DNA of 61,618 nt, counting the filler, from Basidiobolus ranarum (lineage: Eukaryota): the NCBI GenBank assembly GCA_040143965.1. It is 17 parts of 17 records of this genome, joined end to end, with 100 filler letters (N's around TTAATTAATTAA, not from the genome) between each part and the next. Parts side by side here need not be neighbours in the genome. Positions count along the whole stretch, not along the records: positions 54,478 to 57,998 come from JASJQH010009313.1; 16 more parts are not named here. One strand, 5' to 3'. The notes beneath the pieces are model-generated. The model was not told the DNA's origin, ran no database searches, and saw only the letters and a program-made list of their open reading frames with translations. Of the stretch, positions 12,272 through 60,196 are shown in pieces. Made by a program: the position numbers and the translations under genes. Position 1 is the stretch's first letter. Every line of letters starts with the position of its first letter.

Positions 12272-12278
12272 TACCTGG

Positions 12279-28400: not shown

Positions 28401-28828
28401 AGAGAAACCACCAGAGTTTTACCTACCCTTGTAGTATTGAAGATTCTAGATAGTTCCATTATCAGAAATAATCTGGTCATATAGTGTGTCTTTACCCTTT
28501 AAAGATAGAGTGAAGAATATGTCTCTTATCAATATTTTTAAGCTTCCAGTATAAAACATTCAGCTTTGCTGGAGATTTGTAGTGGGATTAAGCTTTAGTT
28601 CTGAATATTTAAGTTAACACCCTTATCCCACACTACAATGCATGCCAAATATGAGGATCAATATTTTAGCATGTATGAACACTGTCAAAATACCATCAAG
28701 AGACCACCATCACACTATCAAAATCCCTAGCAGAATACAAGCCACCAATATTATGATGATTATCTGATGGTTTTGTGATATAGAAGGGTGAATACAATCC
28801 AGATCAAATTGATTTTATTTTGTTAGGG
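25481..28828 (+). mobile_element. Decayed CMC/EnSpm-like (Transposase_21/Tnp2-type) DNA transposon with intact right end
   Basis: Frameshifted transposase with PIILINLNL..ERYK..N..IISGPKSP..DSFLEPL, CIGETPAISKLGG and PLGTMHLL. Terminus TTTTGTTAGGG ends at 28828. Confidence 0.8.
27595..28637. mobile_element. Solo LTR-like insertion (1043 nt) with 4-bp TSD
   Basis: Ends TGTAGTGT...ACACTACA, flanked by an ATGC direct repeat. The empty site is visible in the paralogous copy near 12075-12095. Confidence 0.85.
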
Positions 28829-29109
28829 TTATAAAACATGGGATTTTTACCTAATTCAATATAACTCTGATAATCTTGATATATTGTAATTGGTCAATTT
28901 TGAGAATAATCTAAATCTGTTAAGAGTTTGCTTAACCATATTGCTTCTTTTGTTGCTTCACAGGCAGTCATGTATTCAGCTTCTGTTGTTGAAAGTGCTA
29001 CAGTAGGTTNNNNNNNNNNNNNNNNNNNNNNNNNNNNNNNNNNNNNNNNNNNNTTAATTAATTAANNNNNNNNNNNNNNNNNNNNNNNNNNNNNNNNNNN
29101 NNNNNNNNN

Positions 29110-32043
29110 AGCCAGTTGCAACTACTCTTTCTTTGTACCTCGCTATGGTTACATCAGCATGGTCTTTGACTTTGTGGACCCATTTGCAACCTATTGGTTT
29201 TCTACCTGATGGTAGAGGCCTGAAAACCCACCATTTATTTTGCAGAAGTGAAGAAAACTCAGTAGACAATGCTTTTTCTACTCATTTTAATTCTAGACAC
29301 TTCAGAGCTTGATCTTGTGTCTGTGGCTTGTCACAGAATGCTGCATAAGAATAAGCATGATGATTGGAAGTGTCCCACCAGTTTCCTAGCCTATTTCTCC
29401 TTCTTGACGATCTTCCAGGTTCTGAATCATCCTCTGATGTAATTGAGACTTGAATTTTGGTTGAATAGGCCCACACACAGCTGGAATTAAGTCAGACACT
29501 TCCTGAATAGTGCTGATTGTGTTTTCTGGATTGAGCACTGTGATTTGAGGAGAAAAATTTGCTTATTCATCAAAAATGACAACTCAGCACTTAATTAACT
29601 TCTGCTTTTTGGTATCAAATAGTCAATATGCCACAGCTCCATCACAGTAACTAAGAAATATGCATTTTCTGCTTTGGGGTTCCAATTTAGAGCTTGCTTC
29701 AGCTGCCATTAGGCAATATGCTGTGCAACCAAAGATCCTGAGATGATCCACACTTGATCATGATCCATATAGGGCTTCAAATGGAGTTGAATCTTTTAGC
29801 AATCTTGTTGGGCATCTTTTTTGATATAGACTGCAGTGGAGACAGTTTAACCCCAATATTGATAATCTTACTTTTGATCATATAACATCAATCTTACCAT
29901 CTCCACTATGGTCCTATTAGCACATTATGCAACTCCATTTTGCTATGGAGTATAAGGTACAGTAGTCAGTTGCCTAATTCCATGTTTTGAACAAAACCTA
30001 GTAAAGTCTTTAGAGCAGTATTCTCCACCATTATTACTCCTTAGTAATCTTATTTTTTGTGCTGAATCTTTCTCTACTATTGCTTAGTAGTGCTTTAATG
30101 TATCTAAGGCTTCAGATTTTAATTTGAGAAAAAATACCCAATTATATCTTTTTTTGTCATCAATATAGGTCACAAAATACCTTTTCCCACCTAGTGAGAC
30201 AGTTTCATGAGCCCACATAGGTCAGAATAAATCAAGGCAAAATTCTGAGTGGATTTATCTCTTCAGAGCTTGAAGACAGCTGTCAATGATGTTTTCCATT
30301 TACTCAACCTTCACACAGATCCAATATAGTGATATTCTTAATTTCAAAGCTGAAACAAGCCAATTTCAGATCATTTGGGTCAGTTTTTGTTCCCTAATGT
30401 GACTTACTCTTCTATTCCACATTTGACATCTTATTTGACTGGTTTTGGCCAAGCTTGCATGCTAAGAATGCAATTTGTCAATTACTAGCTTCTAAAAGTT
30501 TGAGTATTGATCACAGTAGTTAATTTGGTGATATTCTGATCCATGATAGTGCCTCCAGCCTTGCAGAACACAGAATTTAGTCCTTGACCTATTGCTTGGC
30601 TTACTGAGAGTAGTTTCTTGGCTATGTTTGCTACATAAAGCTCATCATCCAATTTTGCTGATGGTGTAGCTGAATTTTGGTCTAAACTGAGCACATCTGT
30701 TACTGTACCAACAGCATGTAATGCATAGTCTTCACCCAAGTAGACTATCCTTGTTTAGATTGTTTTAGAGCTGGAAAACTAATCTGTCTTCTTTGACATA
30801 TGTTGGGAGGCTTCTGAAGCAATGTACCATGTTTCTGAGTCTTCTTTAGTGGTTACTGATAGGGCAGACACAGATAGATGGTCCCTATCAGAGCTTTCTT
30901 GATTTGCTTGTTCCAATTGTAGCTTTTGGGCAAAAAATTCTTTTTCTACAATCTTTGATTCAATGGCCTGGTTTCTTGCAATACTTGCTGATGATTGATT
31001 TCCTATTGAGGGCACCATTATTGAAGCCTCTTGGAATTTTACAGCTCCAAAAAATGCCTGATCTGCATTATTTTGCTGAGAATTGGATGACCTCAATTCC
31101 TCCTTGAGAAGCCTAGCACCAATGTATTCTGTTGTTAATGGCTCTGATCTTGATTCTAGAGCAATTATGAGGTTCCCAAACTTCTCTGCCAGGCTGCCAA
31201 GCAGTGTCATTACTAAGTCATCTTCATTTAGAGGTGCTCCAATGGAGAGCTGATCTGCCTTAGTTTTTATCCAATTTATGTTATTAAGCATAAAATCATC
31301 AGAATTCATCTGAATTGTGAATAGTTTTCACCTAAGAGATATCCTATTAGCCAGACCTTTACTGTCATATAGTCCCTCAAGTGTTTCCCCAGCATTTTGG
31401 ATATTTTTGGCTGATTGTATTTACCTCAATTGAAAGTGTCTGAAATGTAGACAAAGTGTAGAGAGTGCTTTCCTCTGCTTCTTGTGGAAGGCATGAATAG
31501 CTTCTGCTGGTCCCTTTGGCTCTATTTCTTCTCCTGTAACAGATGCCACAAGATCCTTCTCTTATAGCACCATTTGCATCTTGAACTTCCAGAGGTGGAA
31601 GTCTTCACCATTAAACTTCTCTGTGGATGCATGCGCATTGGTAATTGTACTAGTAGACATTTGTTTAATAGCTAGCTTGGGGTTAATAACCTGAAAAAAG
31701 TTTTTAGGCGATTCAAAAGTATTTTGAACAAGATTTAGATTTGAAAATTAGACACTTAGGTGCTATTGAATTGAATATATCCTAGGTATAGCTTACTATG
31801 AAATAGGAATATTGCATGTGCTTATATGATAACAAACATGCCTGTCAAGCATGGGTGAGAAATTGAGATGATTTGCAGAAGTTTTTGAGAAAATAGTGAA
31901 AATTGATAAAAGTGATCTAATTGGTATATCTATCAATTAGAGCAATAAACACATGTTTTTGAATGCAAAAATTGAGTGCAATATAATCAGAATATCAATA
32001 AACTAACTACAAAATTAATAGTTGCTATTTACCTATTTCAACA
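29110..32043 (-). mobile_element. Decayed Ty1/copia element: LTR 31692-32043, PBS, gag-pol up to the start of RT
   Basis: PBS-like GGTTATTAACCC, gag EKFNGEDFHLWKFKMQMVL, protease WYIASEASQHM, RT start LPSGRKPIGCKWV..ARYKERVVA. Confidence 0.85.
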
Positions 32044-32085
32044 GAAGGTGGCTTCAGAAGAAGAACATTTAACTTGGCACTCTGT

Positions 32086-32635
32086 CTAGTGTTTACCTTG
32101 CTCATAGCTGGGAAGAACATAATACAGAGTGGCACAATATTGCTTGGTATCTGCCAGATACCTGGAAGACAGTGGATTGAGTAACATTAATGTAATAGTG
32201 GGCTTTGATGGAGATATTAACTCAAACTTGTGCTTATGAAGCATAGGATTTGTTGGTTTCAGCTCTTCAGCAACACTGTTCAGGGATATTGGCTTCATAG
32301 ATGCTTAGAGGATTTGGGCTGATGATGGGTTGAATACTTTGCAGGTGAGCAGATATGTACTAGGAGGTGGAGTTTGCCTGAACGTGATAATATTCTTCTT
32401 CCAGTTGATTACTGGGTTGTGCTGCATAAGCCATGAGATACCAAGGATGACTGGATGGTGAGATGAAGAAATGATATTAATGGCTATTTCTTCTTGATGA
32501 GCAGTGGACATGAGTGTCATAAAGGTTGTCTCATGTGTTACAGCACCTGATGATAGCGGCCTTCCATCAATTACTTCTACAAAGACTGGACTAGATTTCT
32601 TGATTGTTGGGATAGAGTGGGATTTGACAAAGGCA
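32086..32635 (-). mobile_element. Ty3/gypsy aspartic protease region fragment
   Basis: VEVIDGRPLSSGAVTHET...HPVILGISWLMQHNPVINW. The downstream part is homologous to about 13450-13600. Confidence 0.8.
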
Positions 32636-35600: not shown

Positions 35601-37049
35601 GCTTCGTTCACACTATAATATAACTAGCTAATTTTATTTTGGTAATGGAATTATGCAAAATCACATGCACTTCCATCCGCTGTAAAGAATTACTGTATGG
35701 CCCAAACACTAAACATTATGCTAGCTGAATTCCTGCAACCTTAAGGAAAAAGCATGTGGACTCTTCTACAGACATATTGTTAATACACAACTGAAATATG
35801 TTCAAAACATAAGTGAAGGCAGAGCAAACCATTGACAGCTTGGACAGTGCCAAATCTCCTCATACTTTGCTACAAAACCCAATACAGATATGTTGTCCAT
35901 GAGTGAATCTACATTTTCATTGCTAATGTTACTGTTGTGTCCAAGAGAAAAGTGGATAAAAAGTCTTGAACTTTACTGAACCAAAGAAACAGTTAAGTGC
36001 AGAATCTTAGAACTGTTTAAGCAGGGTTTATCAGCAGAGCAGATCTAACTAATATATGTCTTGGGAATAGCAGTGGGTTGCTATGTTATGATAGAGAGTA
36101 GGTTTGCTAGGCAGCTAGGCTTGGTGTTCTGTAGGTGCTAGTCAATACTAGGCTTGGATAGAAATGAGGGGGAATATGGAATTTGTTGAGAAACACTGAG
36201 AAATGTTGAGATCCTATATTTGTTGAGACACACACTCAACCAAAAGGGTCAGGTAGCTTTNNNNNNNNNNNNNNNNNNNNNNNNNNNNNNNNNNNNNNNN
36301 NNNNTTAATTAATTAANNNNNNNNNNNNNNNNNNNNNNNNNNNNNNNNNNNNNNNNNNNNTGGTACAACCAATGATTTCACTTCAATCATCATGTTACCA
36401 TAAGAACAATCCATAGGGATCTGCTAGAATTTTTAGTAAGGGCCAATGATCTCCAAATATTGTGAAAGATGTAGGAGGGTATATATGAAATACTGGCATA
36501 TATTTAGTCAATCTATGATGAAGCTTCTTGCATTCAATCATAAAATCTGTACAAAGCGACTGTAGTAAGGCAGTGTTGCTACCCAGTGGTAGGTTAACTT
36601 ATTTGCACATCTAGTTCACATCATTGATATCTGTCTATCTTTATTTTGTTATCTTTATTGGATTTAGTCTTGTTTTTTAGCCATGCAACTTACACTATTG
36701 GTACTATCCCCTAGTATATGATACTTACTAGTGTTAACATATACCTGCCCTCTAATTGTCTGGAAATCAAATAATTGTCCAGAGCTTTCCATACTATATA
36801 TGAAATAATTAAAAAGTGATTTGATAATAATCAATGTAAACAAGATTCTACTCAAATCTTGCATGACTTTCTGTACTATTCTACAACTTTTGGGAACATA
36901 TTATGAATTACTACTCCTATGACCAATAGTGACATCTTATCCCCAGATTCTCATCAATAGACTTTGCTGGAATTTACAGAAACTCTCATTAGTAATCCAC
37001 CCAATCTTCAGTAAAGTGTAAATAGAGCTATATCTCTTCAATAAAAATC

Positions 37050-39885
37050 CACTGAATTTATTATTGCCTACATACTATATAGTCATAAATAGCAAAGCAT
37101 TCAGTTATGTTACACTTTCACTAAGAATTTACCATTATCCTCAAATGGAATTTAGCTGGAACATTTTTTCCTACTTAAAAGTTCTCAGATACTGGAATTT
37201 TCAAACTTGTGCTAAAAGTTACACCACTTGTACACATGTTCCTGGGACCTTTATTAACACATTTTTGTTGTCTGGTTTGTATCTTCACAAAACTGCAAAT
37301 GTCAGCTTACATTAATATGTGAAAACTATCAATTCCTCTGATTTTCCAAGCCACTTACACCAGGCTCCCAAATACTTTAGCAGGCTATGTGCCTAACGCT
37401 TTCACCATGTATAATGCACACTTCTCATATTTCTGGAACTTTTCCCTCTACTGAAAAATTTGATGGAACTTAACATCAAGTATAGAAATATATGATAAAC
37501 ATGTTGTTGCATGAAAAAGGGCTTTTGGACACTGTTGTAGGAAACATGAGCAATGCAAAACTATCCAGTACCAAAGCTTAACTTGGGGTTAAAAAGAATG
37601 TAGTGCCTTTATCACAATAATATCTTTTTGTCAAAGACAAATTGCTAGTTGATTGTTCAGGAGCCAAAACTGCCAGTAAGACATGGAAAGCCTTGGAAGA
37701 CACCTACCTAATATGTTCTGCTGCTAAGAATAAGTTTTTAAGAAGACAATTCTGTAAGTTAAGCAGCAAGCCAGGAGATGACATTAAATTACTAATAAAC
37801 AGAGTCACTCTTGGAGTGGGTGCAATGGAATTCATTGGAATACCTAATACTAATTAGGATCTAGCAGTTGCAGTCTTGAATAGTGTGCCATGTATGATTT
37901 AGTGCCTAGAGGTGGCTCTAGAACCAAGAACCAAAAGTTGTCCTTAGATTTTCCCTTCTTGGCAGACTCCTGGATGGGGATCCACACACATTAGGATAGA
38001 CCCAATGAATGACGAAATTTCTTTAGTAGGCTTTGGGAAAATTTCCAGTAACAGTTAAAAGAACATGTAAAAGAAAAGTTATATACTCTGTTATTACTGT
38101 AAAAAAGCAGGCTACTGAAGTGAAAATTGCTTAAATACAATTGAATGAGAGGATAAATGTACTGAATCTGGAATTGTGTTCATATCTTCTCCATTTATGA
38201 CTGCTAATGAGGATTCTCACAGCTTGTATATTTAATCTGGAACCTTGCAACATTTCATAAATGAAAAACACTGGAGTGTGTATTAGGAAGAAATGCCAAT
38301 TGGAAAGGTTTTTAGGCTGATGACCATGCATTTGATGGCATTGGAATGGGAACAATGCAAGCCTATTTCACTGGTGCCTCTGATGACAAAATGCATACTT
38401 TTAAGGATATATCACATGTTTCAGATATTGCCAAGAACTTAATATCCCTATATAAGGCTACCTCAGAAGTGCTAAAATTCAATTTTATAAGTTGTGGTGC
38501 ACCATCACTGATCTAAATGGGAGTCATTTTGCTCTAGGAGAAATAGTTCAGAGCTAATACCGAGATATTTTTATAATTCTATGGGTAAGTAGAAGTTGTT
38601 CCAACCAATAAACTATTGAATTATGGTTTAAGAGATTTGTATTTGTTGGATTTAATTATTTGACCAAAATGAATAAAATTTGCTTAAGTTCTGAAAACCA
38701 ACTGATCCCCCCCACCAAAATAAAAAAATATGAGGGTTGTATATATATTAAAGAAGTCAGGCAACTGTTCAAGAACCCTGGTTTAATCAATTCTGTTAAA
38801 AATTCGATCTAATTTATTCAGATTTGTTGCACCTAAGCAAAATTTATCTTTGGGAGGAAAAAATATTTCTTCACATTTATTGATGATTATACAACATTCA
38901 CTAAAGTCTACTTTATGTAAAGAAAAGAAGATGTACTCACTATCTTTAGAGATCTTAAATCACTCATGGAGACTGAAACTGCAACTAGAATTAAGAAAGT
39001 ACACACAGATAATAATGGAGCATAACTTTCAACCCTGTTTAATCACTTTTGCAATATTTATGGAGTTGAGCAAAAAACTATTGCCCCTGATTCACCTGAA
39101 CAAAATTTAGTTACCAAAAGAGCTGACAGAACTATAATTGAAATTGCAAGATCTATGATAAGTGCACAAACTTTATCCTATAAATGTTGGGTGGAATCAG
39201 TGATGACAGCTGTATATCTGAGGCATAGGAGTCTGTCAAGTGCTACACCAAATCAAACTTGGCTTGAAGTTAAACCTAATGTTAAACATTTATGGGTCTT
39301 TGAATACATTACTTAAGTTAAAATTATGACCAAAAATTGGTTGAAACTTAATCTAGAAAGCAACAAATTCATTTTTCTGGGCTATTGTATGCAACTACAG
39401 CCTTCAGAATCTGCAATACTAAAATTTCACAGTTAATCAAGTCCAGAGATGTTTTGTTTGTGAGAAATAAATGATGTTTGCCTAAAAGAATCTCAAATTA
39501 TCATTGAAATCAGTCTTCTCCTGATCTAATCAATCAAATTGAATGAAATATAAATAACTAGAAAATAGCATTCTTGCAAACCCTTCAAACAAAATGTTTC
39601 TTACACAAGTACCCAATACAATGCAACTAGCTGTAGTACCTATATCCAGAACCAGGAGATTAAGTTTAACCAGATATGGCCCTGACTACTCTTTTAGTGA
39701 GACCCATAATTGAGTGATGAGTTCCAGTCTTTGACTAATAATCAAATGTGAATTTTGTCAACTAGCTTACTGATAGAAAATCAATTGGCTACCAATGGGT
39801 ATTCAAATTTAAATATAACTCCAATGGCTTTATAGAAAGGTATAAGGCAAGACTACTAGCCAACAACTATTATAAGCACCAGGAT
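37050..39885 (+). mobile_element. Heavily decayed copia element: family A LTR about 37050-37382, then gag-pol
   Basis: LTR followed by a degenerate PBS GGCTATGTGCC. Collinear with the better-preserved copy at 55294-57768. Confidence 0.85.
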
Positions 39886-40571: not shown

Positions 40572-43509
40572 TTAGTACCGTTGTGGTCTAAAGCCCCCTC
40601 TACCTCCGCCACGTTGAGGCGGGCGGTCGTAATTACCACCTCCTCTACCTCGTCCATTTTGGAAACGTGGTGGTCTACCATCATTATGGCCACCTCGCCC
40701 TCTCGGGTCAAAGCCTCTCGATGTATTTCCAGCACTGGGAGGTGGAGGAGGAGAGGAGCTTTCATCGAATCTTCTTTTACCATATGGAGGGGCTCCTTGG
40801 TCCTGGTATCCACCTCTCATCGATCCCCCTTGCTCAGAAAACCCATGATGTGGGGGGCCAGAAGCGTTTCGATTTGTTCTTGGATCCTGAGGTGGGCCAT
40901 TATCATTCGGGCCAGAATTATATCTGGAGTTGTGATGATTCTCATTATAACCTCTGGATGAGCCAGAATCATTGAATCCTCCACGAGAGCCAGACGGTGG
41001 TGGAGGTGGTCTAGAATCGAATCCGCCTCTATGTCCAGAGGGAGGTCTCGCACCATCGAAATGACCTCTAGGCCCATTCATACCCCCACTTGATGGAGGT
41101 CGTGGAAATCCGGAATCTCCTGCAGCTCCTTGTCTCGAAGAGGGCGGGAAAGGTGGTTGACCTCCTCCGGGTGGGGGTCTCATACCAGGGGGCATATTAT
41201 TAGGCGGTCTATGCTGCGAATGAAATGGGGGAGCTCCGTGTCCAGGTGGCCCATTGGGTCTGAATGAGTAGTCGTTTGAAGGTGGCCCATCTCTACGATC
41301 AGACATGGGTCCATTTCGAGGTTTGGACATACCAAAGCCAGGTAAGGGACCATTCCTATCCTGACCAATTCCCAGACCTGGGGGAGCGAAATCCATTCCA
41401 CCTTTTTCTCTTCGATTTGGAGAACCTTGATGGTTTTTATTATTGAACATAGATAGGCCAGGAACATGGCTGTCTAAATGGATAAAAAAGAATCTGAGTG
41501 AGTAATGAATTCACACCAAAGAGAATATAATCCAAAGATTGAACCTTCTTCCCAATGATTGTCACCAGTGTTGAGACCGTCCGGCTTCTCATCAGTTTTA
41601 TCAGAGGTAGCGCCGGGTCTTTCACGAGTCCAAAACTTGGTGGAATGGTCATTCGAGCCAGAAGCAATGATATGCCCAACTGGATGCCAGTCTAAAGACC
41701 AGATATTCTGCTCATGAGCTCCCTCTATGTTTGCGACAGCCTGATCATTTCTGTTGTTTACATATTTAATAAGCAGGCACAAGAATGTCAAGTTTCAGGT
41801 ATAATACCTACCCTATAAGCCAGTATGTAAGCGAGCCCTCGGAACCGCCAGTAGCTAAGAGACGTTCATGGATCGGATGCCATGAAAGAGCTTTACACAA
41901 GTTAGCAAATAAGATGAATAGCTGACAAAATAAAATCTCCACTTACAAGACAGTTCTTCCTTTCCACTTCTAAATGTTTGAAGCTCCTTCATCATTCTAA
42001 TATCGTAAACTTTCATCATTTGATCACGAGCAACGGTGGCAAGCCAATTGCCATTTTTGTTCCATTCTATTCCACTTACAGTGGCTTTGTGACCATGTCT
42101 AAAACAACACGTTAGATTGCAGCAGAAATAAATATCACTTCGTAGTTGACTTACAATGTGGTCAAGTTTCGGCCGGATTTAGGATCCCACAGCTTTACCA
42201 AATTATCCTTGGAACCAGATGCAAGAAGAGCCTTAGATGGATGCCAGTCAACACATTTTACATCCCAGCCGTGACCTAAAAGTATCCAACAGTGAGAAAG
42301 CAAGATTCTGATATCGATTTTGGAGATGCAGTAATCTAACCTGTAAGTATTCTTTCCTCAATGCCTTCATTGAAATTCCAGATTTTGATAGTACCATCAT
42401 CAGAGCAGGTAGCAAATTTGACATCAGTAGGTGAAAATCTATGTGAATGAGTCAGCTAGGTTCACGGATTTGCTCTCTAGGTGGTTAGTGAATACTCACG
42501 CTATATCTCGGATGGCTTCTTTGTGTCCTTGGAATACTTTAAGATTATTCATGTTGGATTGCCAATATTTGATAACACCACTATGGTCTGCAGTGACCAT
42601 CCAGTTATCATTGTGAGTCCATTCCATAGCTCTGACCGCAGTATCATGAGCCTACCAATAGAGTTGCATTAAAGTTACGTTCTTTGTACACTACATTCTG
42701 AGTACTAACCTGAAGAATAGTTTCGAAATTGAAGGTCAATCCATTCCAGAGAGTGAATTCTCCACTAGTAGATCCGGTGATTAAACGTCTGCCTTCTGGT
42801 GTCCACTGGATAAATAGCATATCAAAATAACTTAAATTCCGCTACCAGGAACGTCGAAAGATGTGATCAAAACTCCTCGCTTACCTTCACAACATTGACC
42901 GGACAACGAATCTTGTTTGTTGAAGTGTGTACAAACTTGGTGGCTCCAGCGTCCACAGGATTATTTAAATGAAAAGCAGTAGGTAATAGCTATTACGAAG
43001 CAGACCATGAAAGTTGATACGACCAAGCAATAATATGTCGGAGAAAAAAGCTTTATTATTAGACACGCTGTATAGAGTACAAAACCTTGCAAAAACTACC
43101 AGTACAAAGAGTAAACTGGTAATAGCAATGAAGTTTGAAATACCAAGAAAATAATCAAGAGTTTTACTTACATTGACGATAAAATTGGGGTTGGGTCTAA
43201 GGATTGGTACATCTCTATGATCTTTCAAAGTTGGGAATAACTAGAATAAGAAAAAGAACAATTGATCTTTCATCAGTTCAAATCCTAATAGATACCATAG
43301 CAAAGTCAAGCCAATACGACTAGATTAAGCAGAGTCCTACAAGGTTACCAGATCAAATAAAGTATCATAAAACTTTTAGCATACCTCAGTTCCCAAAGCG
43401 ATAGAAGAGTTATAATCAACGGTACGACGTTGGATGGCTTTACGTAGACTTTTACCATCAAACGTCATACGATTTGAGTAGCCCATTCCTCCGCCGCCAC
43501 CTCCACCAC
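40572..43509 (-). CDS. PFS2: Pre-mRNA 3' end processing WD40 protein PFS2/WDR33, multi-exon, 5' end missing
   Basis: [98 protein letters not shown]. Ends in a Pro/Gly/Arg-rich tail. Confidence 0.95.
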
Positions 43510-44344: not shown

Positions 44345-44676
44345 ACGCCAAGAGCGATGCAACAAAGTATTGAATTGAATGATTTTTTTTTATTTTCTAA
44401 AAATAAACATGTATCACTTGTACAAAAAATGCTAGGAAGTTATTCCATGTTGTTCATGAGTAAGTTGAACATGAAAAGTGAGTGTTTATTGTGCTTTTTT
44501 TTGCAATTTTTGGACGAAATATTACTAACCACGACTGTATATCATCAATCATGTGAAGTCCCTTAAGAATATATGCGCATGGTTTCAACCTTCAAAGCTA
44601 TTTGCACAGATGACACGTGACTAGTTATACATTGATTTTTCAGTTTTGGTTTTCAGTAGCTCCTTCTTCCACATTC

Positions 44677-47133
44677 ATGTCAAAATTGGCTTATTACGAA
44701 AAACTTGCCGAGAATGGAACCAGTTTAACTCCAGAAGTCTTCAATTGGATGATGGGTCTTTATGAAGACGATGTCATTGCAAAGACTTATGTAGCACTTT
44801 CGATTCCGGCAGCCAATGCCTATGGCCAAGGACAATATGATCGTCGTCAGGAAGAAAAAGCACGCCGTCAGGAAGAAGCCCAACTTCTTCGTCTACAACT
44901 CCAAATTACAGAAGCAGACGAAGCAAAGTGGGCGCCACCCAATCTTAATCAGTTACTAACTGGGGTGAATTACAACAACTTAGAATTAGGAACAGACTGG
45001 GAATCATTGAAGTTCCAGGCTGAAGAAACACTTATCAATTCGACCGTGTTCGCAACAACTTTCCCGTTTGTAAATCGAGAATCAGCGTTGCGTCGTCTTG
45101 TTGGCTACATTGCTGAAATGCACTCCTTGCTTGAATATACTGGTAATTCGAACTCTATCACTAGTCAATATTACTCTAATGTTATGAAAGTGGCTCGACT
45201 ACTCACAATAACGGGCGCGCCAGGTATTGGCAAGACAACGTTCTGCCATCGTGCATTGGCTACAATTGTCAACTATCAGAAGCTGACCAACACCCCCTCC
45301 TCTACCTCCGGAAGTATGGAGCTAATGACCTCCACAGCTTCTGATTCAAGCATACCTACAAGTCCAATAGCGTCCACATCTATAGCTGTTTCATCACCCT
45401 CGCCTTCTAAAGCGGATGGTTCAAGCAAAATAATTCAACCGGTAAGTGACGAGGATTCTTCGTTGTTCAAATCTTTTCGCTCGCTACCGGATTCCCTCCG
45501 AGATGCTCTCCAATATGGCCACAGAAAAGGTTTGTCATTATATGTCGACATGAGTGATTTGGTATCTATATTGCCGAGTGGTAATATTGCTATTCCTTTA
45601 CTCCATGCATTTTTAAAGTCCCGCAAAGCATCACCGACATTGTTACACAACATCTGTGAGGGTGCGAAGACTAATCTGCGGAATCTCACTACAACAATGG
45701 TATTTAAACATATCAGGCAGACAATGGGCATAAAAAGGAAAGCAGTTCTGCTCCTTTTCGTTGATGAAACCAATTCTATCCTGAGCTCTGACGTGGGTAC
45801 CCAGTTTTTGTCCAACATGATGTTAGCGTATCGTCAAAGCATGGTTGAGGAACGTGAAACATTAATCTTCATGCCGATCTTTGTTGGTACGCGGCAAGAA
45901 AAATTACTAAGCACTGTGAGACTGAGTGGAGCGCAAAAATATGTTATCCCCATCCCACTCCTCCAGTACACTCACCTCTGCGAAATCTGTCGTCTCCTTA
46001 TCACAAAGGCTCTCCCTGATATACATGAACTTGAAATTCACAAACAGGTAAAAAATCGCCTTCTTCTTGCCGGTGGTCATATTCGAATATTTGTGGAGCT
46101 GTTATTTCGGTTAGGAAAAACCAAAATTTCTGGAGATTTCTCATGGCGACAGTTGTACTCTAGCTTGATTGGCAAAACACCTATCAGTTTAATTGACCGT
46201 GCTGTTGATGATGTTGCCAAAGACTTCTATGACGGAACCCACACAGACGTGTTGAAAATCATGCCTCGGCTCGCAGCGTACCAGGTTTTGCAGAAGCCTG
46301 TTTTCTTGGACACGGTCGTGGAAATACCGGGAGATATGGATGGTTCAAGAAGGCCGGGTGTACGAATTTCAGCACTTGTTGAAAATGGTTTTATTGCACT
46401 GGATTTACATGCTGATAAGTACTTTGTTGATGTGCCATTTTTGATTTTCAAGGCGGCTCTTGAAAAGCACACTATATCACGTCCATATGTACTGGCCTCG
46501 GTTTTAACGCATTTATCATCCGATGAAAACGAAAGAAACGACATGGACATTATACTGTTAAAGTTAGAAATGCTTCAGTTGCTTGATTGTACAAGTTTTC
46601 AGCTTGGCGACATCTTTCCACCTGAATCTTTCACCCATATCAAAGAAATGCAGCGTATTGAACAAAAATATTGCATTCCGCAGAATTTCATACGTAATCG
46701 ATTAGAGACAGGATTTGATTTAGACTCGCTTCGGGAATTAGTCAAGCAAAACCTCAACTGCAGGTTGAAAGAAGAGGTTACTGTAGCATTCATCAACTAT
46801 CCAAAAGCGTCCGGTCCAGACTCTGTTTTATTTGTAGAACCATTAAACTCGCCATCTGACATAGCCGTGAATAAGAAACGAAAGACATCAACTGATGGTC
46901 AATTGACAGCAATATATGTGCAATCTAAAGGCAGTCCCACCAGTCGCTCCAAAGAAGAAGGTTCCTATATTCTCAGCCCTTCAGGCTTTAAGATAGAGCG
47001 GAACAAGGCGAATCTTAAGGATTTGGACCTTTTCGTGTACATAACTGACAGAAAAACCAGACCAACCGACATTCAAGCTTTGTCTGACTCTGATCTTATG
47101 GTTGATTTTAGCAGTGCAAGCTTGTTTCTGGGG
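44677..47133 (+). CDS. Crinkler/RHS-type protein: P-loop NTPase plus C-terminal PD-(D/E)xK-like nuclease; 3' end missing
   Basis: Intronless ORF of more than 800 aa, first ATG at 44677. Walker A GAPGIGKT preceded by PFVNRE, Walker B LLLFVDE, AGGHIR motif. C-terminal FINYPKASGPD...IYVQSK and an NLS-like KKRK. Confidence 0.75.
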
Positions 47134-47398
47134 NNNNNNNNNNNNNNNNNNNNNNNNNNNNNNNNNNNNNNNNNNNNTTAATTAATTAANNNNNNNNNNN
47201 NNNNNNNNNNNNNNNNNNNNNNNNNNNNNNNNNCTATAGCTTCCCTAACAAGATGATGCCCAATAAATATGTGCTTTGTTCTAAAATGAAATGTAGGGTT
47301 TTTAGCTATTTAAATTCAACTTTGATTATGTTGAAATACAGTATAGCAAATTTTTGCTTATGTACTAAGTCTGTCAATAACTTCCTTAACCACATAGT

Positions 47399-47747
47399 TG
47401 TTAGAGCATTTGGGAGCCTGCTGGAAGTGGCTTGGAGAATTAGAGAAATTGATGGACTTCACTTATTGATGTATTGAGTAGAAAGTTGACATTTAAAGTT
47501 TTGTCACAATGTAAGCAAACTAACATGTAGAATGTGTAAAGATAGTCCTAGGAGCATGTGTGCAAAGTTTGCGGCTTTTAGCAAAAGTTTAAAAAAATAT
47601 ACATATCTGAGAACTTCTAAGTTGGCAATATATATTATAATTAAATTCCAGTTGAGAATAATGGATAATATCTTAATGAAATATAAGATTACTAAGTACC
47701 AAGCTATTCATGACTATATAGGTGTTTAGGCAAGGCTAATTTCAAAA
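47399..47747 (-). mobile_element. Solo copia LTR (family A) inside a copia RNase H fragment (about 47234-47830)
   Basis: Flanks ATAGT/ATAGC. The flanking minus-strand sequence reads ALSTTEAGYMAA...WLRKLLTDL. Confidence 0.8.
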
Positions 47748-49728
47748 ATAGCTTCTTGCATAGTAGCAGAGCAGCCATATACCCTGCTTCTGTAGTGGAA
47801 AGTGCTAAGGTTTGTTGTTTCCCATTATTCAAAGTTATGGTAAACCAATAGTTGAGCAAAGTGCAGCAGAAACACCATCAAAACCAACAACTTCCATATT
47901 GACAGCTTTGCCAACTATTGAACACCCCTCCATATACACTTTGGATAGAATTATTACAAGGGTTTATCATGCAAAACACAATAATGATTTGTATTCAATC
48001 ATAAGTAAAAATTACAAAGTTGCCACACAGGCCATGACAAACAATACTGCCAAAATGATGCAATTAATGGAGCATTATGAAGCAACAAGTCAACAGTTAG
48101 TGAGTCACTCAACAAAGAAACAAGACGTTCAGAATGATGATGCCATTATTCTGATCTCTGCATTCTCATCCACTGAAAATAGAACTCTTCTATTGTTAGA
48201 TTGTGACATCATATTTGCTGTGCTATCCCTTCTTGGCAATCTTGGGTTAAGTTAATCCAGGTTACCTTATATGGAAGTCAAGCTCTTTGGAACATTCATG
48301 AAACCTAACAAATCATGTCATCCCACACATAGTGTATTAACACCAAGAACTTCTATGGAAGGTCACCTGATCATCCTTACATCATCCCTGTTTGCAGTGG
48401 TATTTGTGATCCCCAACACCCCAATACTTGAACTTACCACAGTTTATTCCTTATTCAGTATTTTATGCTTCACCCTGCAATATCTATATAAGCCCCATGT
48501 ATTCCTTGATCAGACCTCAGTCTGATCATTGCCAGTTATCAATAAAGCCTCTTGCCAAAGCATCTTCCCTGTCCAGTCTTGTCTTCTGTTGCGGTCTACA
48601 CCCAAGTACTCTCGTGCCTTCTAGCCTCTTGTTATTGTTTCCAGTCCTTTTCCAGTTCCTTATTGTGACAGGTGTACTTGAGCTACAGCAACAAGCTGCT
48701 ACTTCTGTCCTTTCTTGTATGGGATTTCCATCAATACCACTCCATACATATGAATGTCACCATGACAATCTAGCAGAGCAGCATGTGTGTTGACCATTAA
48801 GCCAACACAATGACCAGAGTTTCTTGGGCACATGAAAGTAGAAATCTCATAGGAAAAACAGCAAACCAAGAGACTCTGAATGTCAGAACTGCTTTCACTT
48901 ACTCTGATGATCAGTGGTTTAACTATTTGGTAACTGTGCATAATCTTGCCTGAAATCACCTTTATATGAACCAATTGTGGAAAAACAAAAAACAAGGCAT
49001 TACTCTGAGGTTCTTGACTGTTTCTATGTGGCATATCATGGGTTTTTGCAAGCAAATGGCAATTGGGCTAATAAAGGCCTATTCATGAAACATCTCCAAA
49101 ATGTACACAATTATTGACTTGGCAAAGAAAGAAAAGAAGCTAAAGAAGTACTCAAGGAGCTGGATGTTAGTAAACCCAAGGCTAAAGCAAAGGAGCCAGC
49201 ATGTTTAGGCTCTACTGTCCCACTTATCCAATTCTTCACACCATTACAAATATCAGTACTTCTAGAGTCGGATATACCTTCAGATATACTGGTGAAAAGG
49301 CTTAAATTTATCATTGAACCAAGACACCAGCTGGAAGAGTGATAAGTTCAAAGGTTTATCCAACAACAAGCACCTCTTGACAAGCCAAAATACCATCAAT
49401 TATTACTCACAGCTCTCCAATCACAACTGGTATGTATCAAAGTGTTTATATTAGCCAAAAAAATACAAAAGTAGTCAAAGTGCTTGAGAAGTATTTTCAA
49501 AAGTATGAAGGGAAAAACGCAGGGCAAGTATGCCAAAAGTGGCATCAGTAGAAGAAATTCAACTTGACATTCAGTCTGGTGTTGGCCATGCGGATATTTG
49601 GGAAGAACTTAATACAGAGTGGTGTTGTGTTCAAGAGAAAAGTGGGTAAAAGTCTTGAGCTTTAGTGAGCAAAAGAAACAATTAAGTGCAGAATCTTAGA
49701 ACTGTTTAAGCAGGATATATTAGCAGAG

Positions 49729-49822
49729 CCCTAACAGAAATTTGAGGATTGTTATTGTAAGAAAACCATCACAATTTTAATCAATTTGGGGTAGACCATT
49801 TACTTACCATCATAAAAATTGT
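49729..49822 (+). mobile_element. CMC-like left end, interrupted by the next element
   Basis: Begins CCCTAACAGAAATTTGAGGATTG. Similarity to 13110 and 57769 stops abruptly at 49822. Confidence 0.75.
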
Positions 49823-50756
49823 TGTAGTTGTTTTAGAGTGTAAGCAGTAACTATAACTGCAATATCCTAAGGGTTTAGTGAGGTGTCCAAAGGGTGCAAT
49901 AACTGCGGTTGAAAAACTCAGGGATGCACTGTAATATGGGTCTGTCTCTTGCTTCTTGGGTCTTTGTGAAAGGGAATCAAGCCTCTAGAAATGTCTAAGG
50001 ACTGATAAACTACAATGCAATGTCCAGCTTTTGGTAGAATAATATACTGGCACCTGACAAAAGAATATACTGGCTTCAGCATCCTTTGAGAATGATCAGA
50101 TAAAAAGGGTATATCCAATCAAAAACAACTGTAAACTCAGCCAGCAGGGTCTTGAACAAGGATGCACTAGTAGTGATTTATCCAAGGATATGAAAAAGTT
50201 CCTTGCCTATGCAGACAAAGCTAGGGAAAAAATATAAAGTATCAGAAATATAACACCTACCTGTCAGTACTTCCTTTGAGCTGGTCAAGTCCTTTCTAGT
50301 CACACAGTAGCCTGTAACTGCCTCTAGTAGTCTCTCTTGAGCTTCCTCTTCAAAGGTCTTGTAAGCGGTGATGAAAATAAGGGGTGATCACAAGTAGTAA
50401 TTGTTAGTTGAAAACCAGGATGATTTTTATTTGAAAAGATATGGCTCCTATTTATACTTTTCTGAAGATAGACATGATTACTAATGAAAAATTTTCGGAA
50501 AGTTCCAGAGAATTCTATTGGTGGGGATCCACAGTTACGATATCATCAAAAATCATGAGATTAGTAATCCATGGAATGTTCCGGAAGGTTGTAGAAAAAT
50601 CCAGAAAGTAATGGAATGTTCCGGCAAAATCAAGTTTTGATTGGTCAAAACTCAATCAATCATCAAATGTTCCAAGAATCTTGTGGAATGTTCTGGAAGA
50701 TTGTAGAATTTGCAGAAAATAATAGGGCTAATGTGGGTTAATACTGATAAATCTGA
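49823..50756 (-). mobile_element. LTR-like element carrying a stress-motif-rich promoter
   Basis: TGTAGT terminus at the insertion breakpoint. Minus-strand TATAAATA at 50449-50456. The other end is lost at the contig edge. Confidence 0.6.
50478..50717. promoter_or_regulatory. Heat-shock element arrays and Yap1/AP-1-type sites
   Basis: Perfect GAAnnTTCnnGAA at 50574-50586 and 50686-50698, within longer runs of GAA spaced 10 bp apart. TTACTAA at 50478-50484 and TTAGTAA at 50561-50567. Confidence 0.6.
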
Positions 50757-53700: not shown

Positions 53701-54185
53701 CGTAGAAAATACCAGTTTTGAAATTCAAGCATACAAACCTCCTCACAATACCGGCATTTGTTTGTAACAGCCAAGAAAATCACATGTGACACTTGAATGT
53801 TGGCGGAATATCCAACCAATAAAAAGGTATAAATTTGATTTGGCTGGCCATATAAACATCTCTAAACCCCAGTTATCCACTTTGGTAACAATATAACCGA
53901 GTACATATGTCGTCAACAGTCAAAGTAAGAAGCCCTTATTTGTCAAATATATTTGTAGTTAATATGACAGAGGTAGTTTTCGTGTATCAAGGTTGATGGT
54001 AGCACGTAGCTAAATTATGGTGAAATTCCAGATATACTTTAATATGTCCAGCCTCAGACGGTACAAAGTTGCAACCCGTTCCAAAGCACATTCCATTGTA
54101 CTTAGGTCATATTGTAAAATGTATAAATATCAGATTTCAAAATCCAAAGCCCTTATTCCTGATATTCTCATCATCTTCACAACCG

Positions 54186-54377
54186 ATGTTTTCATATAGA
54201 AGCAAGTATCTTGTACTTGCAGTTTCTATAGTCGCTTGTCTGACTCTGACGCTGTGGATATTATTTCGTCATGCCAACCAAGCTACTGATTACATTGAAC
54301 AGCCTAATAATGAGAACCATTTGGAAGGCAAACCAGATGAGTTAATCTTTACATACCCTAACAGTAGTCACCCATTC
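54186..54377 (+). CDS. N-terminus of a type II membrane protein (Golgi-enzyme-like topology), truncated
   Basis: MFSYRSKY, then a hydrophobic LVLAVSIVACLTLTLWILF segment, then a polar stem. Cut by the contig end; function not identifiable. Confidence 0.55.
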
Positions 54378-54477
54378 NNNNNNNNNNNNNNNNNNNNNNN
54401 NNNNNNNNNNNNNNNNNNNNNTTAATTAATTAANNNNNNNNNNNNNNNNNNNNNNNNNNNNNNNNNNNNNNNNNNNN

Positions 54478-54979
54478 TTATTTTTCGGCCAGCAATTTCT
54501 CCGTCGTAAATTTTTCCGAGGGCAGACTCTCCAACATAATTTTTCATGCAAATTTTTTTTGTTGGAATGGTAACCAGTTTGATTAGATCGGGGTCTAATT
54601 TGTGTGCGTCTCCGATTTTTCTGGCAACATTGGATTTGTTAATTAATTTATTTAATCTTTCGGTTGGACTAACATCTTGATGAGTATTAACAGGGAGGCA
54701 AACAGCTTCTATGCATAATATCCACATTAGTTGATTCATCCTGTCCATTAATTCACGATATTTATTATCTGCATTAAATGCCAATACCAATCTGATTACT
54801 AACCCCGAATCGCACATTTTAGAAATAAAAAGTTCACAATCTTTTATCGTTAAACATAAATCTTGTACAACTTTTCTGTCTAATAATTTTTCGCGAATAT
54901 AATTTTTTCTTTCCATGGACGAAATTCCATTTTTCATACGTACAATAGTGTCCTTAAGTGCATTACACTTATTCTTGGT
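54478..54979 (-). CDS. MLKL-like four-helix-bundle plus protein kinase gene fragment; 5' end cut by an LTR, 3' end by the contig edge
   Basis: The frame is open from 54979 (TKNKCNALKDTIVR precedes the tracked Met). The helical region matches the MLKL N-terminal pattern and is followed by a kinase subdomain I-like VGESALGKIYDGEIAGRKI. Confidence 0.6.
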
Positions 54980-55293
54980 TCAATAATTAATCTTCATTCA
55001 ACATCATAGTTAACTTTAGTTATGATACATATATCAGAAACAGAAAGCAACATATCTATAGCCCCTATATTCCAAATAGGAATATCTCTATATCTATATA
55101 ACAAGTATGTCTTATTACCCCCACTTATCTATTATATCTTATTACACAAACCCCTGAATATCTCAAACAATTGATTTACTTCTCAACTATATAAGTCACC
55201 ATATACTCTTAAGAATAAAGTAACTAAAACACACTATCATAAGTTGCTTCTAATACTCAAAGTCTACCCCCATTATGTCAAGATCCTACAACA
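54977..55293. mobile_element. LTR (family C)
   Basis: Ends CAACA. The 5' part matches 14369-14476 and the 3' part matches about 22335-22470. No TSD. Confidence 0.75.
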
Positions 55294-57768
55294 GAAGAAA
55301 ACAATGCAAAACTATCTGATACCAAAGTTTTACTCCAGGTTAAAAAATAACAGAGTGTCTTTAACACAGTTTGTCTTAATGTTAAAGACAAATTGCTAAA
55401 GCTATGTTCAAGAGCCAAAACTGCCAAGAAGGTATGGAAAACCTTGGAAGACACCTACCAAACAAGTTCTGCTACCAACAAGATATTTCTAAGAAGACTA
55501 TTCATTGATTTAAAGATGAAGCCATGAGAAGACATTAAATCACTGATTAATACAGGCACTATTTTAGTGGAAGAAATGGAATGCATTGGAGTACCAACTA
55601 CTGATCAAGAATTCATAGTTACAGTTCTGAATAGCATGCCACACAAGTTTCAGAGTCTAGTAATGGCTGCAGAAGCAAGAACCGAAAATTTTACCTTGAA
55701 TTATGTGTTTGGCAGACTTCTGAATGAAGATTTGCACAAATTGGGATCCAACCAAAAGAATGAAGAAAATGCTGTAATAGGCTACATGAAACTGCCTATA
55801 AAGGTCAAAAGCAATTTAAGTAGAAAAGTAACACATTGTGTGATTACTGTAAAAGAACTGGCCATTTAAGCAAAGATTGCTTTACAAGAATTGCAAAAGA
55901 AGAAAAATGTACTGAATCTGAAAATGTGGTTATAACAGAAGATCACTTGTTCAAATTTGCTCTATCTATGACTATCAACAAGGATTCTCAGATGTGGCAT
56001 ATTGATTCTGGAGCTTCCCAACATTTCACAAATGAAAAAGTTGGTTTGTGAAATATGAAGAAATCCCAATTAGATAGGTTTTCATGGGAGATGACTGCAC
56101 ATTAGATGCTATTAGAATGGGAACAATTCAAGTCAATTTAACTGGAGCTTCTGAAGAGAAAGTATATACCTTTAAGGGTATACTACATGTTCCAGATATT
56201 GCCAAGAACTTAATATCTGTATGCAAGGCCACCTCAGAAAGGCCAAAATTCAATTTTGATAAGTCAGGATGCAACATCACCGATCAAAATGGGAAATATT
56301 TAGCTTCAGGAGAAAAGGATCAAAACTCATACAAACTTACATATAATCCAAGAGGTTAATGTGTAAATATAAGTTATTCCAATCAAGAAACTATTCAATT
56401 ATGGCATAAGAGATTTGGCCATATTGGATTTGATTATTTGTGCAAAAAGATCAAAAATTGCCTAATTTTTAGAATTCAAATTAACCCCCCCAACCAAAAT
56501 GGAAATTTGTGAGGGTTGTATATATGGAAAGTAAGCCAAGCAACCATTCAAGAGCTCTGGTTCAATCATATCTGTCAAAAAATTGGATCTAATTCTTTCA
56601 GATGTGCTTGGACCTATGCAAAATTTATCTTTAGGTCAAAAAAGATATTTAATCACATTTATTACTGATTATACAGGATACACTTGGGTTTACTTTATGG
56701 AAAGAAAAGAAGAAGCTTTCTCTATCATTAGAGATTTTAAAACACTTATGGAGACTGAAACAGGAACTAAAATTACAAAAGTTCGCACTGATAACAGTGG
56801 AGAATATCCTTCAACACTATTTAAGCACTTTTGCAAAGTTCATCGAATTAAGCAATAAACTATTGCTCCCTATTCACCTCAACAAAATGGAGTTGCTGAA
56901 AGAGCTAACAGGACTATAATAGAAATGGCAAGATCCATGATAAATGCACAAAATTTATCTCAGAACTTTTGGGTGGAATCTGTTGCCACAGCTGTATATC
57001 TGAAAAATAAGATATTTACTAGATGTCTGTCTTACTCTACACCATATCAAGCTTGGTTTGGAGTGAAACCTGATGTAAAACATTTGAGGATCTTTGGATG
57101 CATTGCTTATGTCAAAATTATGACCAAAAATGGGTCTAAACTTGATCCAAAAAGTAAGAAATGCATGTTTCTGGGTTATTGTACTCAAACTAAGGCCTAC
57201 AGAATCTATGATACCAAAATCTCCAAGTTAATCAAATCCAGGGATGTTTTGTTAAATGAAAATGAAAAATTTTCACCCAAAATGACCTCAGATGGTGATG
57301 AAAATCAATTTTCTCCCGATTCAAACATTCATATTCATACAAATGAAAACAATGAAGAAAGTAGCATTCCTGTGGACCCTTCAACCCAAATTTTGCCTAC
57401 TAAAGTGCCCAATACAATGCCAGAAGTTGTAGTACATTTATCCCAAACCAGGAGATCAAAACGGATCAGAAATAGCCCTGATTACTATATCAATGAGACC
57501 AAAAGTTGGGCCTATGCCTGCACAGATCAAACACATGAACCCCAGACTGTAAAAGAGGCTCTAAATGGCCCTCACACAAAATTTTGGAGATCTGCAATGG
57601 CTGATGATTTCCAGGCTTTGATTGATAATCAAACATGGATTATAACCAACTTACCTGATGATAGATGATCAATTGGCTGGTGTTTAAAGTTAAATACAGC
57701 TCTGATGAAATATAGAAAGCTACAAGGCTAGACTGGTAGTCAAAGGCTATTCCCAAGCACCAGGAATA
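55294..57768 (+). mobile_element. Ty1/copia gag-pol, inactivated by stops and frameshifts
   Basis: Zinc knuckle CDYCKRTGHLSKDC, protease WHIDSGASQH, GAG-pre-integrase LWHKRFGH, integrase SDVLGP..RTDNSGEY..PQQNGVAERANRT, RT start YKARLVVKG. Confidence 0.93.
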
Positions 57769-57998
57769 CCCTAACAGAAATTTGAGGATTGTTATCAATG
57801 GAAAACTGTCACAATTTTAATCCATTTGGGATTGACCATTTACTTACCGTCATAAAATTGTCAAGTCCGATTTGATTTTAATCAATATTTTCAGTTTCAG
57901 GAGTGAAATTTCAAGATCTCACAAAATAGTTGCAAATGATTGGCTAAAATCTCAGAGAACTATGGATCAACACATGTGTGAAAAACGTAACTCAAATT
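57769..57998 (+). mobile_element. CMC-like left end inserted into the copia RT
   Basis: Starts CCCTAACAGAAATTTGAGG exactly where the RT coding sequence stops. Matches 13110-13339. Confidence 0.78.
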
Positions 57999-60196
57999 NN
58001 NNNNNNNNNNNNNNNNNNNNNNNNNNNNNNNNNNNNNNNNNNTTAATTAATTAANNNNNNNNNNNNNNNNNNNNNNNNNNNNNNNNNNNNNNNNNNNNAC
58101 CCTCTCCCCACTTCCCTTTTCACTACCTTCTCACCGAGCTTATCCAAAGCCCGAATTTTCAATTCTAGAGCCTGAAAGAAAAGATACGAATATGAATAAA
58201 TCTACTTTCCTTCAGAGAGAAATCTACGTGATATAAAATACCTGACCTAACCCTCCTTCCCCAGGACAGCTGTTTATTCCCACGTGTGACTTAAGAGGAA
58301 CTAAAGATTTCTAGACATAAACGACCAACTGTTTGAGAACGATTCTTTGTTGGAATCAACTGTAAGGAAATGTCTCTATCTGTGAACTGCAGTGACTCTT
58401 AAAAGAAACCACTTTCTTAAGGGATAGTTGATCTCAAGAGCGTAACATCCCATTTCTCTGTTATAGAAGGCAAACCCTTGTGTCCTTCATTCTTGGACGA
58501 TTCTAATATATATTTGGTGAAAAGTGGGTTTAAACATTACAATATGAATAACCCTAAGGTTCTTCAAATACTTTGTGTTTTGATATTTGTTCATGATTTA
58601 GTATCCAACTGTAGCTGATGGCAGTCAGGACCTCAAATATTTGATGAACACGACAAAAGAGGGGATTTGCAACATTCAAGTGATGATTTATTCACATGAA
58701 CTCCTCCCGATTAATGAATTATATGATATCGCAAGAACGATAGAAGATAGCTTAGTTGTCTCAACTTGTTTATCGCTCTATACAGTGTTTAACCTTAGAT
58801 CGTTTCCATACTATATTACCATTACATAAAAACATACTCTAGAAAGAGACATATTTAGACACCTATCTTAACCAGAAACTATATTTTGCTGTAGCGTTTT
58901 GAAATTAGTTAATAGAAAAGTATATAAGAATATCAACTGGATATAATAAAGAGCTTTTTTATCTGCTATTGCGTTCTATGAGGCCTCTGATTAATGAATT
59001 TACAGAATTATGTAGCAGATGTAATTAAGCACAAATCTATACATCCTTGATTAAATTATAACTGAATTAAGAACCATGATTTCTATGATATGATGGGTTT
59101 GTTTATCTTAAAAACAAATCTAAGAATCCAATGAGAATTGAGCGTCCAGTTCAGTTGGATGTCTAAAACTATATTTTGAACTTTTCACCTTGTTAGCAAA
59201 TAGCTAGTCGCTCGTTATACACATGGTAAAGTTCACCATTGAATTGACCTCTTTATTGTTGCACTTTTTAACGAGAATTCCTTTCTGAAAAAGGATAGTC
59301 ACTTTACTTACCTCCACCATCGCTCCAGTAATTTCATAGATATCGTAGATGAAAAATGGCATAAGGACGAATTGCCTGCAGATGGTAATTACTTTGTGTT
59401 TTTTCTGTTCTTTCCATAATTAACTCTCTTTAAAATAGATATTTCCATACCGGAGAATCTGGAACCGCCTCACCTGGAGGATTTACCTGTAGATAAAGAT
59501 GCTGACAAAAAATGGAATGACTTGGAGCTTTCTTTACAAAGTGACACAGTATGATTTGGGCATTCTATTTTTGTTAGCCTCTGTATCTCCTAGGTTTTCA
59601 GTCATGGATTATCTTTCCTTCAAAGATCGACTTATGTATCTCCAAGCTATAATTGTCCGTGAATTATCACACAAGATAAATTCATGACCACTAGTGAGTT
59701 TGAAGCTGTTGAAAACTGCCTCTGAAAAAGCAGTATCTTAAGCTATATTCGTGGAACCCTAATTTCTATTTTTTTTTGAAATCACTATGTAACCCCTAAT
59801 TAGCATGTAGTGAAAGATGATTGTTTTCTAGCTAAATAAAATAACTAAAACAGTGCCCCTCTAGATTGTGAATAATCTTAAAATTGAATAATAAAAAACC
59901 ACGCATTCGATTTTTGACACTTCACCCAGATTGAGTTAACAATAGAGATCATTTCATTTCAAATATGCTTAGCTTGCCTAATTTGCTTTTACCAAATTTT
60001 CTAAAAACCTACTCAATATCTCCAATCAGTCATCGGAGGAGCTAGGAATTTTTTTCGCTAGTTTTTTTTTCTTCACTATCAGAGATTTTTTTTTCGCCTA
60101 CTAACACATCAAGGCTCGTTTTGTCGCTAAAGGCAGCCTTTGACTTCTCCGTACGGTGTTTATTTTCCCTTGCGCTTTTTGTAGTCTTGTTAAAAT

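Follow-up and report, generated by a model that had tools for sequence, protein, structure and literature searches.

Vertebrate MLKL is built from a four-helix bundle, a brace and a pseudokinase, with its helical region directly N-terminal to the kinase fold. According to the accessible part of one account, GFE replaces DFG in MLKL, the catalytic loop reads HGK, and K230 is termed the catalytic lysine (PMC5104457). Helical N-terminal modules are likewise found in fungi, as the HeLo, HELL and Goodbye domains and the MLKL_NTD-like domains of basidiomycetes, some of them kinase-fused. The available portions of the relevant papers describe fungal HELL domains, some of which occur in fusion with kinases or pseudokinases (PMC12881547), basidiomycete NLRs with MLKL_NTD-like domains (PMC9815663) and, in a paper on metazoan MLKL, a Basidiobolus meristosporus protein, ORX91397.1, that is named MLKL (PMC11476962). 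In the accessible text of a further source, homologues of the MLKL family (TCDB 1.A.105) in early-diverging fungi come from the Glomeromycotina only (PMC8778642). The idea of a fungal protein that joins a bundle to a kinase is already in print, on the accessible text of two of these sources (PMC12881547, PMC11476962), and the most optimistic reading of the locus analysed here would be a very divergent addition to it.

The first-pass annotation had taken this locus for an MLKL-like gene and a candidate executioner of the necroptosis type. An executioner at the locus itself is excluded, the N-terminus having been lost to an LTR and the kinase domain to the end of the contig. We consider it highly probable that the fragment is the insertion-disrupted middle piece of a Basidiobolus-type gene encoding a helical region followed by a dead TKL-like kinase, and that the intact family would work as an MLKL-style switch.

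The window, by which we mean the whole stretch of 61,618 nucleotides that was analysed, consists of 17 unrelated contigs in order of falling length (3550 to 3520 bp) joined by 16 identical linkers. Since the N runs are artificial linkers, neighbourhood across any N run is meaningless. The ORF fragment sits at the left end of the contig at 54478-57998, and the features of this contig and of the linkers are as follows.

54378-54477, no strand: artificial linker N44-TTAATTAATTAA-N44; the DNA to its left belongs to an unrelated contig
3551-3650, 7195-7294 and onwards to 57999-58098, window-wide: further linkers N44-TTAATTAATTAA-N44
54479-54975, minus strand: gene-derived fragment (about residues 3-167 of the frame); the gene probably encoded a TKL-type pseudokinase whose N-terminus is extended by helices
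54479-54544, minus strand: start of the kinase N-lobe, residues 146-167, with the GESALG loop, placed by the PF07714 start in the homologue and by alignment
54545-54975, minus strand: pre-kinase region, residues 3-145, predicted with low confidence to be all-helical
54976-55294, plus strand: 5' LTR of a Ty1/copia element, boundaries approximate, which repeats at other contig ends and has 0 CpG in 319 bp
55295-57998, plus strand: decayed Ty1/copia body with PF14223, PF00098, PF22936, PF00665 and PF25597, in that order

A frame scan and translation gave a stop-free minus-strand ORF of 167 codons running from 54979 to 54479, from which the translation quoted in the first-pass annotation was reproduced exactly. 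Its upstream limit is a TGA at 54980-54982, while its downstream limit is the contig end alone. The upstream extension that had been proposed therefore holds as an open frame to 54979, but its end is an LTR insertion junction and no gene start. At the other end, the kinase N-lobe breaks off a few residues short of the beta3 position, and the kinase domain downstream of the ORF is absent because the N run at 54378-54477 is a linker and the contig ends there.

A phmmer search of 1.84 billion representatives found a single relative of the ORF, the hypothetical protein K7432_017056 of Basidiobolus ranarum (338 aa), with an E-value of 1.9e-56. This match establishes the ORF as coding sequence and not a chance frame, and makes a Basidiobolus or a near relative the very probable source of the window. 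ORF residues 55-167 align with residues 1-113 of K7432_017056 at 81% identity (92/113) and 98% positives, and the alignment is ungapped, so that the absence of introns that had been claimed holds across the 113 comparable residues. The gene model of K7432_017056 begins at the Met equivalent to ORF residue 55, on a contig of 2475 bp, and this start may be an artefact of the contig. ORF residues 55-145 are therefore common to the two proteins, while residues 1-54 have no relative because the K7432_017056 model starts at the residue-55 Met. The two are alike in their GESALG loop and pre-kinase helices. K7432_017056 is, however, a different gene or species copy, with a complete kinase-fold domain that is absent from the window and without the 54 upstream residues that are present in the window ORF. 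Word-index protein searches with the ORF and with K7432_017056 returned only K7432_017056 and two bacterial Ser/Thr kinases, one with PASTA domains; the two bacterial proteins, matched by K7432_017056, are uninformative on the N-terminus. A tblastn search of the other 16 contigs of the window for paralogues of either protein gave none (best off-target E 0.095). The simplest reading is that the ORF derives from a native, fast-evolving and lineage-restricted gene family of Basidiobolus type.

In K7432_017056 a kinase domain follows the helical region, as had been predicted, with PF07714 matching residues 92-335 (E 1.9e-43) and PF00069 matching from residue 92 (E 3.7e-34). Residue 92 corresponds to ORF residue 146 (KNYVGESALGKIYDGEIAGRKI), which coincides with the placement of the N-lobe in the first-pass annotation, and the degenerate glycine-rich loop GESALG noted there is kept in the homologue. 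Of the kinase domain the window holds the initial 22 residues, which are recognised as such through the 81% identity to K7432_017056; the 167-aa ORF by itself had no Pfam kinase match (hmmscan, Pfam-A, E up to 10). The states of the beta3, HRD and DFG motifs likewise come from K7432_017056, these positions lying beyond the contig end in the window. When K7432_017056 was compared with the two bacterial kinases, KINLR was found for VAIK (Lys to Arg), HKD for HRD and GFE in place of DFG, with APE kept, and HMMER alignments to EGFR and the Src-Abl ancestor placed HKD and GFE identically. Having lost both the beta3 Lys and the DFG Asp, K7432_017056 is likely to be a pseudokinase, and its inactivity is predicted on these motif changes. 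The earlier pseudokinase claim thus agrees with the Arg at beta3 and the GFE, but the catalytic Asp of HKD and the APE are retained. K7432_017056 resembles MLKL in also having GFE for DFG and differs from it, as far as the accessible text describes MLKL (PMC5104457), in two motifs, with HKD against the HGK of MLKL and with Arg in place of the beta3 Lys that MLKL retains.

In both sequence and fold, the nearest of the matches listed for the K7432_017056 kinase domain were generic TK/TKL kinases, those from the PDB sequence searches including EGFR, the Src-Abl ancestor, JAK, MAP3K12, ZAK, ABL and BRAF. Unlike K7432_017056, the kinases MAP3K12/DLK, ZAK/MLT and BRAF, and also ABL, EGFR, RET and FGFR, are active and have both the Lys and DFG, and identity to the TKL and tyrosine kinases among the structure matches listed is only 20-26%. 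MLKL was not among the best 60 PDB sequence matches of K7432_017056, or of its catalytic plus activation segment. AlphaFold2 modelling of K7432_017056 from 4 sequences gave an acceptable kinase domain, with residues 1-81 mostly at pLDDT <50, and Foldseek and VIA searches with this model are tests of the kinase fold only. MLKL was not among the roughly 50 matches that they listed, but the kinases were all tied, which makes its absence uninformative.

The junction with the transposon is defined by repeats elsewhere in the window. Positions 54970-55084 match 14362-14476 at 93%, the latter being the terminal 115 bp of a different contig; the two sequences diverge upstream of about 54976, where both begin with TG. 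Further along, 55141-55294 matches 22318-22469 at 81%, and the DNA from 55302 matches a copia copy at 37551-39712 at 74%. The body at 55295-57998 encodes gag, a zinc knuckle, the Pol beta-barrel, the integrase core and an SH3-like domain. It shares with Ty1/copia elements this domain order from gag to the SH3-like domain, and LTR ends that are repeated elsewhere in the window, but differs from them in being decayed, with at least five stops or frame changes, and in running off the contig end before an RT and a 3' LTR are reached. Judged from these alignments, the LTR start at about 54976 is the edge of the kinase-like gene, with the first one or two ORF codons and the stop at 54980-54982 being LTR sequence. 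With the element adjoining at about 54976, the contig lacks the gene start together with at least the first helix, and these are either on another contig or lost. Separately, at 22318-22618 a copia LTR end (81% to 55141-55294) abuts the start of an inverted internal region (84% to 55293-55440, opposite strand), an arrangement that marks a rearranged or nested element.

The retention of CpG by the ORF relative to the adjoining transposon, which had been remarked on before, is borne out by the counts. The ORF part contains 16 CpG in 498 bp, an observed/expected ratio (o/e) of 1.22, against none in the 319 bp of the LTR and 9 in the 2704 bp of the copia body (o/e 0.11), where TpG/CpA reaches 405 observed vs 304 expected. 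CpG is bimodal across the contigs, with ten others at o/e 0.42-0.74 and six in the low class:

10938-14476, 18212-21746, 25481-29009, 29110-32635, 36361-39885 and 47234-50756: low-CpG contigs (o/e 0.04-0.11) with a strong TpG/CpA excess

A transposon ORF or a copia match was present in four of these six, and 18212-21746 had a marginal copia match (E 7e-7). This suggests that CpG decay of the methylation type is restricted to repeats in this genome, and the abrupt change in CpG where the LTR begins illustrates such transposon-restricted decay. The CpG contrast reflects the decay of the transposon and has no bearing on a foreign origin of the ORF.

The identity of the helices is less readily approached. 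In an AlphaFold2 model of the ORF, made from a 2-sequence alignment and with a mean pLDDT of 40, DSSP assigned helices to residues 2-16, 21-40, 45-67, 73-94, 105-125 and 130-136, a low-confidence pattern in which a linker separates four longer helices from two short ones that precede the kinase. The helix count in this model is compatible with a four-helix bundle plus brace but is undiagnostic. Foldseek found 0 matches to the model at E up to 0.001, its best hit (E 2.3) being noise. Searched with hmmscan against Pfam-A (E up to 10), the ORF gave no MLKL_N (PF22215), HeLo (PF14479), HeLo-like (PF17111) or RPW8 (PF05659) match, the sole rows being PF25083 (E 0.042) and PF21538 (E 3.2), both at chance level; such a search is limited in that at least the first helix is missing from the ORF and HMMER filters discard weak matches. 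No PDB chain matched the ORF (phmmer, all chains, E up to 10), an atlas search returned no usable protein match, and a hydrophobic-moment scan of the ORF gave nothing diagnostic. The helical region of the ORF therefore differs from that of MLKL in having no sequence or profile match to it, and from the fungal HeLo and HeLo-like domains in leaving their Pfam profiles unmatched. The first-pass annotation saw an MLKL pattern by eye; no tool matched the N-terminal 145 residues to MLKL_N, HeLo, HELL or RPW8. The identification with the MLKL/HeLo/RPW8 bundle is not supported: Pfam and PDB sequence searches gave no match, the AlphaFold2 model of the ORF is unusable, and at the sensitivity reached here no profile or structural match to that bundle was obtained.

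The positive leads are confined to the GFE of K7432_017056 and to its atlas language-model features, for which all of the matches listed were kinase clusters (0.97). Among those listed, a chordate MLKL cluster had the top shared-feature count (223/256), with PF22215 in 100% of its members, and a Basidiomycota cluster the second (220/256), with PF22215 in 23% of its members. Because PF22215 marks only 23% of this one fungal cluster, the Pfam miss is weak evidence. Nine of the 30 feature matches belonged to the kinase-only set of the first row, and an atlas structure search with K7432_017056 gave no MLKL set among the 10 matches listed. We regard kinship with MLKL as a plausible, live lead, with the chances nevertheless lying against it.

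We propose that in the protein of the intact gene at least about 145 residues of helical N-terminal sequence pass directly into a TKL-like kinase domain that is most likely catalytically dead. At this locus the Ty1/copia LTR at about 54976 would have replaced the start codon along with at least the first helix, and the 3.5-kb contig stops 22 residues into the kinase domain, so that the window copy is most likely an insertion-disrupted remnant and no working gene. In the intact family the kinase fold would act as a non-catalytic switch by which the helical module at the N-terminus is retained or set free, as in an MLKL-style architecture, in which phosphorylation of the pseudokinase or the binding of a partner to it regulates the helical domain. 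The data show that the ORF is coding, that it has a homologue with a kinase domain and altered motifs, and that a transposon adjoins it; the loss of catalysis and the regulatory coupling are inferred, and any disruption of membranes by the helices would be the most inferential step of all. Against the proposal, the helices match no effector domain in Pfam, the PDB, the atlas or the 1.84 billion representatives. The motif changes, moreover, come from K7432_017056, in which the HKD Asp is retained, and the searches turned up no full-length member of the family. It also counts against disruption that the 167-codon frame is still open and CpG-rich beside a decayed element, which could mean that the fragment is in use. 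On a rough estimate, however, about one disruption per approximately 500 bp would be expected at the rate of the element, and an open frame of 167 codons is then unremarkable.

The helices themselves can be read in more than one way. The chances are nearly even, if slightly on the negative side, that the intact protein is a TKL-family pseudokinase without a role in cell death, in which the helices form an unrelated region specific to this lineage that serves regulation or oligomerisation, for example as a coiled coil or a scaffold, the GFE being convergent. The helical region is indeed a sequence orphan, and the position of the kinase domain closest to EGFR, the Src-Abl ancestor, JAK, MAP3K12, ZAK and BRAF among the matches listed, together with the kinase-only set in 9 of the 30 atlas feature matches, fits as well. 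What this leaves unexplained is the top feature counts of the MLKL clusters and the coincidence of GFE, and the helices did not positively match a different helical domain either. It is also possible, although we hold it to be doubtful, that they are a true MLKL/HeLo/HELL four-helix bundle with its brace and that the intact family is a pseudokinase-regulated, membrane-permeabilising fungal executioner. The absence of MLKL_N, HeLo, HeLo-like and RPW8 from the Pfam-A search at E up to 10 argues against this, but is weakened by the occurrence of PF22215 in just 23% of one fungal cluster. In its favour are the helices directly upstream of the kinase fold, a low-confidence predicted helix pattern that is compatible with a bundle plus brace, and the top shared-feature counts of MLKL-bearing clusters among the atlas matches listed. 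The GFE for DFG is as in MLKL on the accessible text (PMC5104457), but could be convergent. Precedents exist, in the parts of the papers available, in the B. meristosporus MLKL (PMC11476962) and in HELL-kinase fusions (PMC12881547). Against these stand the 0 PDB chains at E up to 10, K7432_017056 as the sole match among 1.84 billion, the absence of MLKL from the best 60 PDB sequence matches and from the approximately 50 Foldseek and VIA matches listed, and the lack of an MLKL set among the 10 atlas structure matches listed.

The status of the fragment is less evenly divided. It could be a working gene whose transcription begins in the LTR or upstream and whose translation starts at an internal Met (15, 22 or 55), to give an N-terminally shortened protein, with its kinase domain on another contig, and the 167 open codons with 98% positives to the homologue, the undepleted CpG up to the LTR edge and the B. 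ranarum gene model that also starts at the residue-55 Met can all be cited for this. We judge it distinctly improbable, the adjoining element being old enough to have collected at least five disruptions and the B. ranarum start being possibly an artefact of its 2475-bp contig. Acquisition of the ORF from a virus or another foreign source is extremely unlikely. The compositional contrast with the neighbouring DNA that might suggest it is explained by the CpG-decayed transposon, and although the o/e of 1.22 in the ORF exceeds the 0.42-0.74 of the non-transposon contigs, only 16 CpG are involved. In one pattern scan, 144 matches on viral contigs yielded 0 tblastn-confirmed relatives of the ORF, which leaves the suggestion of a viral origin unsupported, and a pattern scan of metagenome contigs similarly yielded 0 from 85 matches, while the sole relative is fungal (B. 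ranarum).

The locus at 54479-54975 is itself broken, and its value is chiefly that it points to a gene family. That this family is a Basidiobolus orphan with true MLKL architecture, comprising a membrane-active bundle, a brace and a GFE switch too diverged for HMM profiles, strikes us as unlikely. If it were so, there would be an MLKL-type executioner with the GFE signature in an early-diverging fungal lineage, and either the whole architecture would predate the split of fungi and animals or the convergence would be striking. Should the helices be of the 4HB/HeLo type, the family would provide an example of Zoopagomycota grade in which a bundle plus pseudokinase shares GFE with animal MLKL, and would bear on whether necroptosis-type executioners are ancestral to opisthokonts.

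Elsewhere in the window, Pfam searches placed the following features on other contigs.

2326-3240, plus strand: GNAT acetyltransferase (Pfam E 2.3e-8)
12279-12764, minus strand: RT RNase H-like domain of an LTR element (Pfam E 1.8e-30)
25704-26132, plus strand: tnp2-type transposase (Pfam E 4.7e-9)
30779-31327, minus strand: copia gag (Pfam E 3.3e-11)

The unrelated contig to the left of the fragment ends in an open frame on the plus strand (54024-54377) that the contig end truncates; this frame encodes a signal-anchor-like hydrophobic segment (LVLAVSIVACLTLTLWILF) and gave no Pfam match. Another open frame, of 312 codons on the minus strand at 40572-41510, falls where the window is richest in GC (0.40-0.46), and Pfam at E up to 1 returned nothing for it. 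On the plus strand at 44614-47133, a frame of 840 codons without a stop takes up the greater part of its contig and continues to the contig end. Its residues 194-242 bear the signature of a P-loop NTPase (AAA_22, E 4.5e-6), with a weak nSTAND3 match (E 0.015) besides, and on these domain matches the frame may be a STAND/NLR-like gene, in which case it would be of interest for fungal immunity.
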